A stretch of 64,000 bases of DNA from assembly GCF_937898475.1 (NCBI RefSeq), contig NZ_CALEJS010000032.1, positions 115,841 to 179,840 on the forward strand. The letters are read 5' to 3'. Of the stretch, positions 2,799 through 7,763 are shown piece after piece. Source of the DNA: an uncultured Chitinophaga sp. GTDB lineage: Bacteria; Bacteroidota; Bacteroidia; Chitinophagales; Chitinophagaceae. The notes under the pieces were generated by a model. It worked only from the letters and a program-made list of their open reading frames with translations, did no database searches and was not told the origin of the DNA. Position 1 is the stretch's first letter, and each line of letters opens with the position of its first letter. The position numbers and the translations under genes are program-made.

Positions 2799-3791
2799 CT
2801 ACAGGCGGATGTATAGGGATACATTTCCTACTTCATGCTGACGGGTACCTTTTAAGGAGGCGCTCTGTGTTTTCTGCGTATAGGCCAGTATATAGCGGCG
2901 GAACGCAAGGGTAACGCCATAGTCTATTCTGGATACCCAGGGGTTAAGGGTAGCCGTTTTAAAGGATCTGTTAATCTCAAAACGGCTGTTACGCCAGCTG
3001 AAAAGTCCGCCTTCCAGCAGGGCATTGTACAAAGTATACTCCACCGTAGGACGGAGAAATGCATATACCTGGAATTTCTTTTCCTGCAGACCGCTGCCCC
3101 GCGGTATACCGAAATAGGGATTCATATGTCCTGCACGCAGGGTGGCATGTACTGCTGCGCCATCCAGCATCGTTCCGGCGTAACCGGAGGCGCCGCCTAT
3201 CATTTCCAGCGCGGGGCCGGGTTGCCATACCATTTTCTCATAGGTGAAATTGTAGTTGAGCAGCGGCGCATTGGGCAGCTGGTTATCCCAGCCCCTGGGC
3301 CGGGTATAACCCAACACCTTATGAAACCACTTCTGCAGTTCCTCACCAAAGGCCAGGGGCCCCATTACACCCATGATCAGTTCAGACTGCAGGCTGAACT
3401 TTCTTTGTGGATCATAAGAGTCAAGGCCATGGGCCAGGATCAGGGCTGCGGCATAAGAATAGTCATTGGGCTGGTATTTGGGCGTCCTGATGTCTTCGGG
3501 GGTGATCATAATATGCATCAGGCTCCAGTGTGTGGTATTGATGGCATTTTTGCCTGTGCGGGGCAATAACCATTTATCGATAAACCGGGGTGCTGACTGG
3601 CGCTGGTAGAAATAGTCCAGCCGGGTACCATTTGTATAAGATTCATCTGTGCCTTTGCCACGTACATTCATAAAGTCATTATCCTCATAGATACGCAGCA
3701 TCCTGTGAATACTATCTGCAGTAGTGATCACCTGGCTGTTTGCCCTTATAGAAAATAGGATGATTGCCAAAGCAATCATTAATGCTCTCAT
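2799..3791 (-). CDS. Outer-membrane lipid A deacylase LpxR-family (DUF2219-like) protein
   Basis: The ORF is 2799..3797, and I prefer the ATG at 3791 (MRALMIALAIILFSIRANSQ signal peptide). The N-terminal YEDNDF...GTDESYTNGTRLDYFY block and the beta-barrel-like alternating C-terminus resemble the LpxR family as I remember it. Confidence 0.55.
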   Translation of the reverse strand: MRALMIALAIILFSIRANSQVITTADSIHRMLRIYEDNDFMNVRGKGTDESYTNGTRLDYFYQRQSAPRFIDKWLLPRTGKNAINTTHWSLMHIMITPEDIRTPKYQPNDYSYAAALILAHGLDSYDPQRKFSLQSELIMGVMGPLAFGEELQKWFHKVLGYTRPRGWDNQLPNAPLLNYNFTYEKMVWQPGPALEMIGGASGYAGTMLDGAAVHATLRAGHMNPYFGIPRGSGLQEKKFQVYAFLRPTVEYTLYNALLEGGLFSWRNSRFEINRSFKTATLNPWVSRIDYGVTLAFRRYILAYTQKTQSASLKGTRQHEVGNVSLYIRL

Positions 3792-4159
3792 AACCAATCC
3801 GTTTATATCTGGTTCAGTTCATCGTTCGCAGTTGCAGGCAGGTAAACTAACCGTCTGCACTGAAGTTCAGCACAGGCTGGTTATACAGTAGGATGACAGT
3901 TGCAGGTGTATAGGAATCACAACTGACAGCGTTAAAAATGCACAATAACTATGCCCCCGTTGTTGGTCTAAAGGTACGATTTCAGCAAAATAACCTTATA
4001 AATTTTTCCTGTCAGCGTAACATCCGCGTTTGCAAAGCCGTTATAAAACAGTTGTTCTTTTAACCATATTTTTTACTTAATATGCAAACCGTTTCCGTAT
4101 GAAAAACTGATACCCTATAAATACATTTCTTTTTTCTTAACCATTAAACCCAAATTGGT

Positions 4160-4327
4160 ATGCAACCCAACAACCAAGCACAGAAACCCTTCTTTGCGAA
4201 GTTCCTGGAGAACCAGGCCAACGCCAAGGTAACTACCGCCCAACAGGAAGCCGGCCTTACCGCTGAACAGGCTGAAAGCCAGACCACCCTGAAATTCCCT
4301 TCTGACTGGGATGAAGAAGACTGGTAG
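4160..4327 (+). CDS. Graspetide (microviridin-type) precursor peptide 1, 55 aa
   Basis: Hand translation: MQPNNQAQKPFFAKFLENQANAKVTTAQQEAGLTAEQAESQTTLKFPSDWDEEDW*. The leader motif is PFFAKFL (consensus PFFARFL). The core TTLKFPSDWDE is almost identical to the microviridin B core TTLKYPSDWEE. It is below the 60-aa cutoff of the ORF track and lies directly upstream of two ATP-grasp genes. Confidence 0.85.
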   Translation: MQPNNQAQKPFFAKFLENQANAKVTTAQQEAGLTAEQAESQTTLKFPSDWDEEDW

Positions 4328-4402
4328 TCTTCATTGGCAATTCTTATTGTAGCATGGCAGCTATAGCTGCATTTTCTTTAACAATTTAAATCACATTTAA
4401 GT

Positions 4403-4570
4403 ATGCAACCCAACCAAGAACTCCAAAAGCCCTTCTTCGCTCAATTCCTGGAATCACAAGCCAGCAATGCGCAACCGCTTACGTCCATCGTTACCGGTAG
4501 AATTGTAGACCATCCCGGTGATGTAACCCAGAAGTTTCCTTCTGACAATGACGAAGAATGGGATTTCTAG
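4403..4570 (+). CDS. Graspetide (microviridin-type) precursor peptide 2, 55 aa
   Basis: Hand translation: MQPNQELQKPFFAQFLESQASNAQPLTSIVTGRIVDHPGDVTQKFPSDNDEEWDF*. It shares the MQPN start with precursor 1 and has the PFFAQFL leader motif and the core TQKFPSDNDEE. It is a paralogue of precursor 1. Confidence 0.85.
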   Translation: MQPNQELQKPFFAQFLESQASNAQPLTSIVTGRIVDHPGDVTQKFPSDNDEEWDF

Positions 4571-4593
4571 TTCCATAAGACTATTCTGGATAA

Positions 4594-4628
4594 CAAGCAA
4601 TAGCCACCGCGCTATTGCTTGTTTTTAT
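4594..4628 (+). terminator. Rho-independent terminator/attenuator between precursor genes and ligase genes
   Basis: A perfect 11-bp stem, caagcaatagc / gctattgcttg, flanks the loop caccgc and is followed by ttttta. Confidence 0.6.
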
Positions 4629-4638
4629 TAATACCACC

Positions 4639-5613
4639 ATGATACTTTGTATTACCCATTCGCAGGATCATTATACCATTGACCTGGTACAACAGCACCT
4701 GGACAAGCTGGGATACCCTTCCTGGCGCTTTAATTCAGACACCTTTGGTACCAGCTGCAACATTCGCTACACGCTGGATCAGGGGCCTGCCCGGCTGCGC
4801 CTGCATCAGCAGGGCCGCAGCATCCATGCGGCAGACATCAGCGGCGTATGGTACCGCAAACTGTGGGCGCTGAATACCCCTCCCCAACTGGATGCAGCAT
4901 ACCTGCCTGTATTTAACAAGGAATATAATACCACCCTGCATATTTTCCTGGACGCGCTCAGCCATCAGCCCTGGATAAATAAAATAGCGGCTGATCATGC
5001 CGTTTGCAGCAATAAGTTATGGCAGCTGGATGCCGCACAGCAAAGCGGTCTTACGGTACCGGCTACACTTTTTAGCAACCAGGGCGACGATGTACGCACC
5101 TTTTATGAACAGTGCCGGGGCAACATTATTATGAAACTGCACGGCGCCCTTAGCAGGAGCATGAGCGGCAGCGGCGCGTTCTTTCCCACTACACGTGTTA
5201 CCGAAGCTGCCCTTACACAGCTGGATACGCTGGCCTACTGCCCTATGATATTCCAGCAGCAGGTGCCTAAAGCGTATGAGCTGCGTATTGCCTATGCAGA
5301 TGGCGCCTTTTATACCGGTAAGATCAACGCTGTACAGGATGCGAAAGGGCAGACAGACTGGCGCGCGGCCAACGCACAACTGCCCTGGGAGCCCTATGAA
5401 CTGCCGGCCTCCATACAGGAAAGCATATACGTTCTTATGCAGCGGCTGGACCTCAGCTTTGGCGCTATTGACATGATACGCCGGCCCGATGGGGAATATG
5501 TGTTCCTCGAAGTAAACCCCCAGGGCGAATGGGGTATGCTGCAGAAATACCTGGGCTATCCTATTGCAGAAACTATCGCAGAAAAACTCGTAAACAAGAT
5601 TCAACATGGCTAA
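4639..5613 (+). CDS. ATP-grasp ribosomal-peptide maturase (MdnB/MvdC-like, tentative)
   Basis: The track ORF is 4615..5613, and I prefer the ATG at 4639 (MILCITHSQDHYTIDLV, typical of the microviridin ligase N-terminus ...THSQD...). C-terminal ATP-grasp blocks are present: ELRIAYADG, DWR, SFGAIDMIRRPDGEYVFLEVNPQGEW. Its stop overlaps the next gene start. Confidence 0.85.
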   Translation: MILCITHSQDHYTIDLVQQHLDKLGYPSWRFNSDTFGTSCNIRYTLDQGPARLRLHQQGRSIHAADISGVWYRKLWALNTPPQLDAAYLPVFNKEYNTTLHIFLDALSHQPWINKIAADHAVCSNKLWQLDAAQQSGLTVPATLFSNQGDDVRTFYEQCRGNIIMKLHGALSRSMSGSGAFFPTTRVTEAALTQLDTLAYCPMIFQQQVPKAYELRIAYADGAFYTGKINAVQDAKGQTDWRAANAQLPWEPYELPASIQESIYVLMQRLDLSFGAIDMIRRPDGEYVFLEVNPQGEWGMLQKYLGYPIAETIAEKLVNKIQHG

Positions 5614-6598
5614 AGAAAAGGTGATCATATTAACGCATTCGGCAGATAATATATCCGTAGATACCGTCAGCCGGTTTGTAAAAGAAGCCGGCGGCGAAGT
5701 GATACGGTTCAACGTAGATCAGTACCCCCTGCATAACCGGCTCAGCTCTGTTTACCGGAACGGCCAGCAGGAGATAATGCTGGAAAATGAAAGCGGCCTG
5801 CATACTCTGCACGATGCCGCAGGTATCTGGTACAGGCGGAGCTATAACATTGGCAAAGGCCTGGAACAATTCATAGATAAAGAGTTTCTGCCGGCTACCC
5901 TGCAGGAAAGCAAGCGCACCTTATTTGGCATGATAGAAGGCCTGGATATATTCCAGCTGGAAAAATACAGCGTGTACCGCCGGCTGGACAGTAAGGAAGA
6001 GCAGCTGCGTATAGCCGCAGCCTGCGGACTGAACATCCCCGCCACCTGCATCAGCAACGATGCGGCAGTAATACGCCGTTTCATCCGCTCGGTAGATGCG
6101 CCGGTGATCACCAAAATGCAGAGTGCTTTTGCCATCTATCGCGGAGGCGAGGAACATGTGGTATTTACCAACACCGTTGACGAATCTCAGCTGGAGGAGT
6201 TAGACAACGTGCAGTACTGCCCCATGGTATTCCAGGAAAGAATAGAAAAGCAGCTGGAGCTGCGCATCAATATAGTAGGGCATGCCATCTTTGCTTTCAG
6301 CGTTAACTCTGCGGTGTCAGACCGTTCAGCTACCGACTGGCGTAAAGACGGGGCTGCCCTGATAAACAGCTGGGAGCCCTATGAACTGCCCCAGGATATT
6401 CAGCAAAAGCTGCTGGCCTTTATGGATGTATACGGCCTGAACTACGGAGCGATCGATCTGATCCTGTCGCCAGACAACCGGTATTATTTCCTGGAAGTGA
6501 ATGCCGCCGGGGAATATTTCTGGCTGGACAAGCTTTGCGATCATGCCATTTCCCGGCAGATAGCGCATGTACTAACAGGCAAAGCCAGCAGGCGGTAA
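5606..6598 (+). CDS. ATP-grasp ribosomal-peptide maturase (MdnC/MvdD-like, tentative)
   Basis: MAKEKVIILTHSADNISVD..., ITKMQSAFAIY, QYCPMVFQERIEKQLELRINIVG, DWRKDG, NYGAIDLILSPDNRYYFLEVNAAGEYFWL closely resemble the MdnC/MvdD sequence as I recall it. An 8-nt ATGGCTAA overlap with the upstream ligase suggests translational coupling. Confidence 0.88.
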   Translation: MAKEKVIILTHSADNISVDTVSRFVKEAGGEVIRFNVDQYPLHNRLSSVYRNGQQEIMLENESGLHTLHDAAGIWYRRSYNIGKGLEQFIDKEFLPATLQESKRTLFGMIEGLDIFQLEKYSVYRRLDSKEEQLRIAAACGLNIPATCISNDAAVIRRFIRSVDAPVITKMQSAFAIYRGGEEHVVFTNTVDESQLEELDNVQYCPMVFQERIEKQLELRINIVGHAIFAFSVNSAVSDRSATDWRKDGAALINSWEPYELPQDIQQKLLAFMDVYGLNYGAIDLILSPDNRYYFLEVNAAGEYFWLDKLCDHAISRQIAHVLTGKASRR

Positions 6599-6620: not shown

Positions 6621-7118
6621 TTGCTATCCATCGTGAATGTCAGAGCATACATAGATAGTGGGGCGGTAGAATGCTATCTGCTTGGCCTGGCCAGCGCGGA
6701 AGAAGAAGCGCTGCTGCAGCAAATGCTGCGTTTATACCCTGAGCTGGAGTCTGAGATAGCTGATACGGCTTACAGGCTGCAGGAAGCGGCTATGGAAGGG
6801 GGCATTCAGCCACCCGGTGAAGTATGGGATAACATTGCCCGCGAACTGCAGCGCGACGAACGGGAAGCCCGGCGGCAGCAACGATGCCGCCGCCAAAGCG
6901 ATGAGCCTGCCTATACGGTGATCAACCTGCAGCAAACACCATCCAACAGGTATATACAGGTCAGCATTTGGTGGCGTTGTGCCTTTATAGCCCTCTGTAT
7001 GCTGGTGATGGCGCTATTGGCCAGCAATATCTATTTTTACCGGAAGTACCATGAAATGGAACAGCGGGTATTACAGCCGCAACCTTCCAGCCAGTCTGCC
7101 CCCGCTTCAACAAAATAG
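6621..7118 (+). CDS. Anti-sigma-factor-like single-pass membrane protein (orphan, RskA-like N-terminus)
   Basis: The N-terminus YIDSGAVECYLLGLASAEEEALLQQMLRLYPELESEI resembles Bacteroidota anti-sigma N-terminal domains. One TM helix is visible (WWRCAFIALCMLVMALLASNIYF). The start is uncertain: TTG at 6621 or in-frame GTG at 6633. No sigma gene is adjacent. Confidence 0.55.
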   Translation: MLSIVNVRAYIDSGAVECYLLGLASAEEEALLQQMLRLYPELESEIADTAYRLQEAAMEGGIQPPGEVWDNIARELQRDEREARRQQRCRRQSDEPAYTVINLQQTPSNRYIQVSIWWRCAFIALCMLVMALLASNIYFYRKYHEMEQRVLQPQPSSQSAPASTK

Positions 7119-7195: not shown

Positions 7196-7699
7196 ATGAA
7201 GATGAGAAATCTTACACTGGCAACATTATGCCTTATCGCAGCATCCCTGTTTGCCGTTTCATGCGCTTCTTCTTCGGGCGCTACCAGCGCTGCTATCTCC
7301 AAGGGCAGTGTTACCGGCAACTGGGTGATAACTGATATCCAGTTCGAGGGAATACCGGAAAACAGTAAAGTAACGGTATTTGATGAGGCTTCCTATAGCT
7401 GCTTCCAGGGCAGTAACTGGGTGTTACCGTCTAACGGTAAAGGTTCTTACACGCTGTCATCCACTTCAGATGGCTGCAATACAGTATCGCAGCCTATTAT
7501 GTGGTCGCTGTACAAACAGGCCGGCGGCACCATGTTCCAGTTCAAGAAACTGTCTGAAGGCATAAAGGCAAAGAACGTAACAGAAGGTTACCGGGTAGAG
7601 TTGAGCTCCGCAGATGGGAACAGCATGGTGTGGAGAGCGCCGGTGAATTTTGAAGGCAAGAGCGCTTACATTGTATATACACTGCAGAAAAGCAGATAA
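7196..7699 (+). CDS. Lipocalin-like-domain lipoprotein, function unknown
   Basis: Signal peptide plus lipobox (LFAVSC). GNWVITDIQFEG is typical of small lipocalin-like lipoproteins. Confidence 0.6.
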   Translation: MKMRNLTLATLCLIAASLFAVSCASSSGATSAAISKGSVTGNWVITDIQFEGIPENSKVTVFDEASYSCFQGSNWVLPSNGKGSYTLSSTSDGCNTVSQPIMWSLYKQAGGTMFQFKKLSEGIKAKNVTEGYRVELSSADGNSMVWRAPVNFEGKSAYIVYTLQKSR

Positions 7700-7721: not shown

Positions 7722-7763
7722 AAAAGGTGAGGTGTACTCAGTACGCCTCACCTTTCATTTTTT
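7722..7763. terminator. Bidirectional intrinsic terminator between convergent genes
   Basis: The long stem aaaaggtgaggtgtac / gtacgcctcaccttt has loop tca and is followed by a T-run on the + strand. It overlaps the last codons of the LysR gene on the - strand. Confidence 0.65.

Follow-up and report, generated by a model that had tools for sequence, protein, structure and literature searches.

Two microviridin-type precursors in a probable minimal graspetide cassette of an uncultured Chitinophaga sp.

Microviridins inhibit serine proteases at nanomolar concentrations and can be engineered, their specificity being set by the core residue that lies between Thr and Lys. Among characterised relatives, microviridins with a TLKYPSDWEE core (LH1667, M and 1777) are elastase inhibitors, and in some cases also inhibit chymotrypsin or subtilisin. 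In the complex of microviridin J with trypsin, the residue between Thr and Lys lies in the S1 pocket, and mutations there switch specificity (PMC7823629). Here we describe a locus of this class in a 64,000-nucleotide stretch of contig NZ_CALEJS010000032.1 from an uncultured soil-dwelling Chitinophaga sp. (the window, to which all positions refer), where two short precursor genes are followed by the genes for two ATP-grasp ligases. The locus is probably a minimal four-gene microviridin-class graspetide cassette, in which two precursors are combined with one amide ligase and one ester ligase.

The Chitinophaga locus beside described systems

The locus comprises the following genes, leader motifs and cores.

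4160-4327, + strand: precursor gene 1, 55 codons (55 amino acids), sequence MQPNNQAQKPFFAKFLENQANAKVTTAQQEAGLTAEQAESQTTLKFPSDWDEEDW; the upstream neighbour LpxR is divergently transcribed
4187-4207, + strand: leader recognition motif PFFAKFL of precursor 1, read from the translation
4283-4324, + strand: core 1, TTLKFPSDWDEEDW, at the C-terminus of precursor 1; predicted T43-D49 ester, S48-D51 ester and K45-E52 amide
4403-4570, + strand: precursor gene 2, 55 codons (55 amino acids), sequence MQPNQELQKPFFAQFLESQASNAQPLTSIVTGRIVDHPGDVTQKFPSDNDEEWDF
4430-4450, + strand: leader recognition motif PFFAQFL of precursor 2, read from the translation
4526-4567, + strand: core 2 as first called, TQKFPSDNDEEWDF; predicted T42-D48 ester, S47-D50 ester and K44-E51 amide
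4639-5613, + strand: MdnB/MvdC-like ATP-grasp ligase (TIGR04185), 324 amino acids, predicted Lys-Glu amide (lactam) ligase
5606-6598, + strand: CdnC/MdnC/MvdD-like ATP-grasp ligase (TIGR04184), 330 amino acids, predicted omega-ester ligase

Both precursors exceeded the curated cut-offs of NF033738 (48.3 bits for precursor 1 and 45.1 bits for precursor 2, cut-off 26) and PF12559 (35 and 21.6 bits, cut-off 21). Since they are also kept as intact open reading frames in related genomes and the ligase genes are adjacent, the pair of reading frames is not a product of chance. The two precursors are graspetides of the microviridin/marinostatin family (NF033738 and PF12559; group 1 of Lee et al., cluster 21 of Makarova et al.), and the scores above the curated cut-offs agree with the microviridin-type family call made in the preliminary description of this DNA. 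The core positions given there translate exactly to TTLKFPSDWDEEDW and TQKFPSDNDEEWDF, and its residue numbers (T43, K45, S48, D49, D51 and E52; T42, K44, S47, D48, D50 and E51) are correct. The core strings TLKFPSDWDE (precursor 1) and TQKFPSDNDE (precursor 2) both have the TxKxPSDx(D/E)(D/E) layout, with ring-forming residues present in each at T, T+2, T+5, T+6, T+8 and T+9.

The precursors share 50% identity, mostly in the N-terminal leader and the core. The leaders had been described as divergent between PFFAxFL and the core, with only the ends conserved; similarity does lie mainly in the leader start and the core, but in precursor 2 the intervening stretch holds an invariant T-x4-D, discussed below. 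Nine relatives of precursor 2 were found at 54-76% identity, eight of them with the TQKFPSD core. In our genus sample of 103 genomes, 31 of which encode precursors of this family, PFFAQFL is the dominant form of the leader motif, whose part in ligase binding is stated by Makarova et al. (PMC8939145).

The amide ligase scored 377 bits over positions 1-317 of the 318 positions of TIGR04185, the MvdC model (equivalog cut-off 425), and the ester ligase scored 415 bits, full-length, against TIGR04184, the MvdD model (equivalog cut-off 475). The nearest solved relatives of the amide ligase are AMdnB 7M4S (2.1e-71) and a chain of 5IG8 (7.3e-64). For the ester ligase, the nearest is CdnC 7MGV (1.8e-112, 378.9 bits, ~52% identity), followed by the MdnC structure 5IG9 (2.7e-73, 250.2 bits). 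Residues Q207 and E215 of MdnC, mutation of which abolished activity (PMC12848669), align with Q210 and E218 of the ester ligase. The two ligases are 31% identical to each other and their genes overlap by 8 nucleotides; the 90%-identity cluster of the amide ligase has a member named Chitinophaga sp.

Cyanobacterial mdn/mvd clusters have the same order of precursor, amide ligase and ester ligase, the ligases being a paralogous ATP-grasp pair, and they have the PFFAxFL motif and the TxKxPSDx(D/E)E core alike. Unlike class I mdn/mvd clusters, the cassette described here lacks the GNAT N-acetyltransferase (MdnD/MvdB) and the ABC transporter (MdnE/MvdA). Core 1 has TLK-PSDW-EE in common with the Leu-type microviridins (microviridin B; LH1667, YSTLKYPSDWEEY; M and 1777, YNVTLKYPSDWEEF), and its close likeness to the characterised TLKYPSDWEE microviridins bears out the earlier claim that it is a near-copy of microviridin B. 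It departs from them by Phe for Tyr after Lys and by Asp for Glu at the second ester acceptor; in addition, the acidic/aromatic tail is longer here and the host belongs to the Bacteroidota.

Chryseoviridin (CdnA3/CdnB/CdnC, Chryseobacterium gregarium) has a like core end, PSDxDE, and its CdnC is the nearest relative of our ester ligase. Upstream of its core, precursor 2 has a TxxxxD sequence that resembles the single-ring units of C. gregarium, as one candidate unit in contrast to four. Neither precursor here has a GG motif separating leader from core, Gln or Leu takes the place of Met in the pocket, and a lactam is predicted, whereas it is absent from the characterised chryseoviridin product. 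Grimoviridin (IATRKAPSDDDEGFS) from Grimontia marina has Asp as second ester acceptor and a C-terminal tail past the amide acceptor, as do the present cores, but it is a trypsin inhibitor with Arg in the pocket, has Ala instead of Phe/Tyr after Lys, and comes from a gammaproteobacterial host. Marinostatin and marinostatin E (ATMRYPSDSDEDGFN) likewise combine the PSDxDE layout, Asp as second ester acceptor and an acidic tail; they differ in being bicyclic, with Arg for Lys and hence no lactam, and in having Met in the pocket (PMC10125368).

The supplement of Makarova et al. 2022 (PMC8939145) contains a sequence identical to precursor 1 at every position; this entry, for Chitinophaga sp. JGI 0001002-D04 (cluster 21), is in silico only. 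That strain has the same layout of two precursors and two ligases, and its second precursor ends in …GHETQKYPSDSDEGWES, not in …GDVTQKFPSDNDEEWDF as precursor 2 does here.

Ring pattern of the two products

We assessed the ring pattern in a family sample, for which a profile search of 1.84 billion representatives returned 432 members and the best 150 of these provided 443 cores. Among the 429 Lys-containing cores, the residue at T+8 is acidic in 100% and that at T+9 in 98%, in contrast to only 14% at T+10. This conservation speaks for the pairs S48-D51 and K45-E52 (precursor 1) and for S47-D50 and K44-E51 (precursor 2), so that the T-D / S-D / K-E register first put forward from residue spacing fits the acidity pattern of the family. 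The extra Glu at T+10 is no conserved acceptor, and genus cores with one Glu after Asp (…PSDGDEV and …PSDGDETDI) agree with an acceptor at T+9.

We consider it improbable that the products are bicyclic, with two esters and no lactam, and that the MdnB-like ligase is inactive on them or otherwise employed. Such an outcome would resemble marinostatin, which is bicyclic, and chryseoviridin, which was made in vitro without a lactam despite the presence of CdnB in its locus (PMC10125368). However, marinostatin has Arg in place of the Lys found in the present cores, Lys and the acidic T+9 residue are both conserved in the family, and the MdnB-like gene is intact and full-length, with 71-76% identity kept across its clade. 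Moreover, grimoviridin, which has the same PSDxDE layout as the cores here, bears two esters and one isopeptide bond (PMC10125368).

Two further candidate ring units lie upstream of the cores.

4493-4510, + strand: T31-GRIV-D36 in precursor 2, chryseoviridin-type TxxxxD unit, candidate for an extra omega-ester ring, proposed from T/D conservation
4259-4276, + strand: T34-AEQA-E39 (TxxxxE) in precursor 1, separated from T43 by three residues, with Glu as the would-be acceptor

The T31-D36 unit begins 11 residues before the core Thr of precursor 2. Over 19 distinct hexamers, drawn from relatives of precursor 2, the main lineage of the genus and other Bacteroidota, T and D are invariant and the inner residues are variable (TGKLID, TSKLAD, TNKFLD, TLKIWD, TTRLLD, THPLKD and TKPGGD are among them), and in the 150 representatives T-x4-D was observed upstream of the core 61 times, compared with 23 expected by shuffling. 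Makarova et al. give the chryseoviridin family motif as TxxxxDxxxTxKxPSDxD[DE] (PMC8939145), and the C. gregarium precursor, …GGAV-TSALVD-NV-TSVNKD-NV-TSSLLD-HV-TKPGGD-NV-TMKYPSDGDE…, contains four TxxxxD units (PMC8939145 supplement). We infer that these correspond to the four extra esters reported for chryseoviridin (PMC10125368). The distance from the leader is similar in the two systems, T31 lying 14 residues past the FL of the leader motif and the first C. gregarium unit 15 residues past it.

Another genome of the genus, G036, has seven tandem precursor genes at one locus (L020, G036:C1:3672170-3675307). Two of these precursors (at about 423 and 612; …PFFAQLLEA…ITWPWIDNPIVS and …ITWPWIDIPITE) carry the leader motif and a TxxxxD unit only, with no TxKxPSD core. 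The lone unit is TWPWID in both, which argues that the TxxxxD unit is a substrate on its own.

On this evidence, a T31-D36 omega-ester is plausible as an extra, fourth ring in precursor 2, and we are inclined towards it. The invariant T-x4-D, together with the CdnC-like ester ligase, indicates that core 2 is probably longer than 14 residues, and the 14-residue core 2 initially called is therefore probably too short. The modified core 2 would then probably comprise about 25 residues (TGRIVDHPGDVTQKFPSDNDEEWDF) with four rings. A simpler outcome is possible, if less than probable, namely that both products are 14-residue tricyclic microviridins and that the stretch from PFFAxFL to the core is disposable leader with no extra ring. 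Classical cyanobacterial microviridins are built in this way, orthologues of precursor 1 do not conserve TxxxxD/E, and the spacer between the unit and the core Thr is 5 residues in precursor 2 as opposed to 2 in C. gregarium. This simpler outcome is at odds with the invariance of the upstream T and D around a variable interior in the 19 hexamers, with the G036 precursors that carry the unit alone, and with the affinity of the ester ligase, which is nearer to CdnC, an enzyme that installs single rings, than to MdnC (379 vs 250 bits).

In precursor 1, the T34-AEQA-E39 unit is absent from the orthologues in genomes G025 and G069; it is possible that it forms an extra ring unit or that it belongs to an L-T-A-E-Q site resembling a leader-cleavage site. 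We also considered a lactam formed via the Lys of an upstream TxK unit. This was ruled out, as Arg occupies that position in the window and there is no conserved acidic partner.

In the pathway that we propose, both precursors would dock on the ligases via the PFFAxFL helix, after which the CdnC/MdnC-like ligase (5606-6598) would form two omega-esters, Thr to the Asp at T+6 and Ser to the Asp at T+8, and the MdnB-like ligase (4639-5613) would then close the Lys-Glu lactam at T+9. Precursor 2 would gain a fourth ring, the T31-D36 omega-ester. The products would be cage-like, substrate-mimicking inhibitors of serine proteases that place the residue between Thr and Lys in the S1 pocket. In precursor 1 this would be Leu, associated with inhibition of the elastase, chymotrypsin or subtilisin type in characterised relatives, and in precursor 2 it would be Gln, a common natural state of the position. 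Leader removal and export, if any, would be supplied from elsewhere in the genome.

Several observations weigh against this proposal, in addition to the longer spacer of precursor 2. Every cross-link in both products is inferred, and the example of chryseoviridin means that the lactam is not guaranteed here. The T/D conservation could reflect a role in the leader or in recognition rather than a ring. Both ligases fall under their equivalog cut-offs and are thus family members, not strict orthologues of the cyanobacterial enzymes. Neither the cassette nor the precursors hold a GG cleavage motif, a protease, an exporter or an acetyltransferase. Finally, the Bacteroidota -7 box (TAnnTTTG) had no exact match upstream of the precursors, where only TACATTTC at 4122 was found. 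A scan for sigma-70-type promoters at the precursors likewise stayed at background level and gave no convincing promoter.

Pocket residue and second ester acceptor across the family

Gln in the pocket of core 2 and Asp at the second ester acceptor of both cores had been singled out in the preliminary description. Across the 443 cores, the pocket position that separates Thr from Lys/Arg is occupied by Leu in 194, Met in 86, Gln in 34, Arg in 29, Glu in 28, Lys in 25 and His in 13, which ranks Gln third, with a count that is possibly somewhat inflated by a profile built from Gln-rich sequences. At the second ester acceptor, Asp is the majority state (261 of 443 cores; Glu in the other 182), and it occurs in two characterised peptides, marinostatin and the tricyclic grimoviridin, so it is not a special feature of this locus.

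Gln is also widespread in the genus and already present in a published catalogue. Genus cores include TQKYPSDGDEEWWLL, TQKFPSDGDETDI, TQKFPSDGDEEWDI and TQKYPSDGDDGVEI, in addition to His, Leu, Met, Asp and Thr variants, and nearly all have PSDxDE. The family is enriched in this genus relative to the phylum, in which it is sparse (5 of 401 sampled genomes). In the PMC8939145 supplement, TQKYPSD occurs 17 times and TQKFPSD once, from sources that include Calothrix, Moorea and Archangium; the Gln-type precursors listed there thus include cyanobacterial and myxobacterial ones. The core strings (TQKFPSD, TLKFPSD, TQKYPSD and others) had no match in the main text of the full-text papers searched and were found only in that supplement. 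The notion that Gln is unusual as such therefore does not hold. The accompanying remark that it is not known from characterised members fared better, in that targeted literature searches found Gln between Thr and Lys in none of the characterised members, an absence that we regard as provisional; the 2021 microviridin review (PMC7823629) never mentions Gln or glutamine. Taken together, the locus belongs, as an uncharacterised member, to a known family that has been catalogued before, in which the flagged Gln and Asp are common.

The pocket (P1) codons of the two cores are one base apart, CTG for Leu44 in core 1 and CAG for Gln43 in core 2. In 23 genomes of the genus, a 15-residue core, T[H/Q/L]KYPSDGDEEWWLL, varies solely at the pocket residue. 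Mapped on the tree of the adjacent amide ligase, this residue changed at least three times, with Gln in two separate clades; because the 23 genomes are kin and a quick search produced the tree, three is to be read as a minimum and not as a statistical test. Such genus cores, differing at the pocket residue, look like a natural scan of the protease pocket.

It is very improbable that only one precursor is a true substrate and the other a decaying duplicate. Tandem precursor duplicates are frequent in the family, with fast turnover, and precursor 2 is barely over the Pfam cut-off (21.6 vs 21 bits). Nevertheless, the leader motif and all ring-forming residues are kept in both precursors, neither has a stop or frameshift, and a pair of one Leu-type and one Gln-type precursor is kept in G025, G046, G063 and G071, even though the amide ligase has diverged by 24-29%. 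In G069, the pair is Leu and Met.

Cassette limits, expression and implications

The genome (6.7 Mb in 44 contigs) has a single locus of this type. In G025 and G046, the gene order is helicase, LpxR, precursor 1, precursor 2, ligase, ligase, anti-sigma-like gene, lipoprotein gene, LysR and ispG; G069 has the same order up to the two precursors, where its contig ends. Locus L080 of G002 (G002:C1:993395-1005395) is an empty site with the same flanks (helicase, LpxR, anti-sigma-like gene, lipoprotein gene, LysR and ispG), in which ~420 bp without the cluster lie between LpxR and the anti-sigma-like gene. Other members of the genus have one to several precursors and two ligases at a second site, flanked by a glycosyltransferase gene and a probable dapD, and no accessory gene is common to these second-site loci. 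The cluster-free flanks of G002 and the lack of a shared accessory gene define the unit as a cassette of four genes that includes no acetyltransferase, exporter or protease. Given the two different genomic sites and the empty site in G002, the cassette has moved or been lost repeatedly in the genus. Base composition showed no anomaly that would point to horizontal transfer.

The genes at 6621-7118 (anti-sigma-like) and 7196-7699 (lipoprotein) were rejected as cluster members because both keep their place in the cluster-free G002, and the anti-sigma-like gene is found in 102 of the 103 genus genomes, with or without a cluster. Its product in the window is a single-pass protein of 165 amino acids that weakly matches anti-sigma models (29 bits). 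The gene is often present as a tandem pair of paralogues in the genus, and no sigma factor gene is adjacent to it in the window. On the other side of the cassette, 2799-3797 on the - strand encodes an LpxR-family outer-membrane lipid A deacylase (PF09982, 1.6e-58).

Two hairpins were evaluated within the cassette.

4357-4370, + strand: weak hairpin of 5 bp downstream of precursor 1, with a T-rich tract behind it
4592-4631, + strand: GC-containing hairpin of 13 bp with a T-run behind it, located after precursor 2 and ahead of the ligase genes; resembles a terminator or attenuator

The second of these folds at -20.8 kcal/mol (z -5.2) and was equalled by 0 of 200 shuffles. It is probably a partial terminator that favours precursor over enzyme transcripts. 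The alternative start of the amide ligase, TTG at 4615, lies inside this hairpin, making ATG at 4639 the likely start. The hairpin after precursor 1 folded no better than shuffled sequence (z -0.8) and was dismissed. Downstream of the cassette, a 15-bp hairpin with a T-run (7723-7755), situated between the convergent lipoprotein gene (+ strand) and LysR gene (- strand), is a likely terminator, possibly a bidirectional one.

Inhibition by such peptides does not depend on leader removal, according to PMC11672978. With regard to the removal itself, LAEQ/LEEQ is the motif after which NosP, an M1 protease, cleaves the leaders of class I microviridins (PMC13039773), and L-T-A-E-Q of precursor 1 (L33-Q37, 4256-4270) resembles this motif. 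The genome has eight M1-family peptidases; they are uninformative as candidates for leader removal, the family being ubiquitous.

A more far-reaching idea, which we regard as unlikely, is that the Gln-type peptide has four rings, formed by three esters and a lactam, as a hybrid between chryseoviridin and microviridin, and that its Gln is aimed at proteases that no characterised microviridin inhibits. If so, its targets might include enzymes with a polar S1 pocket or with cleavage after Gln, and the variants with Leu, Gln and His would be a natural panel of specificities maintained by the genus. For the family as a whole, Gln and His pockets are common in nature (34 and 13 of the 443 cores), and this genus holds otherwise identical cores that differ there. 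Finally, the likely extra ring in precursor 2 suggests that many 'microviridins' of the Bacteroidota may have been annotated with cores that are too short.

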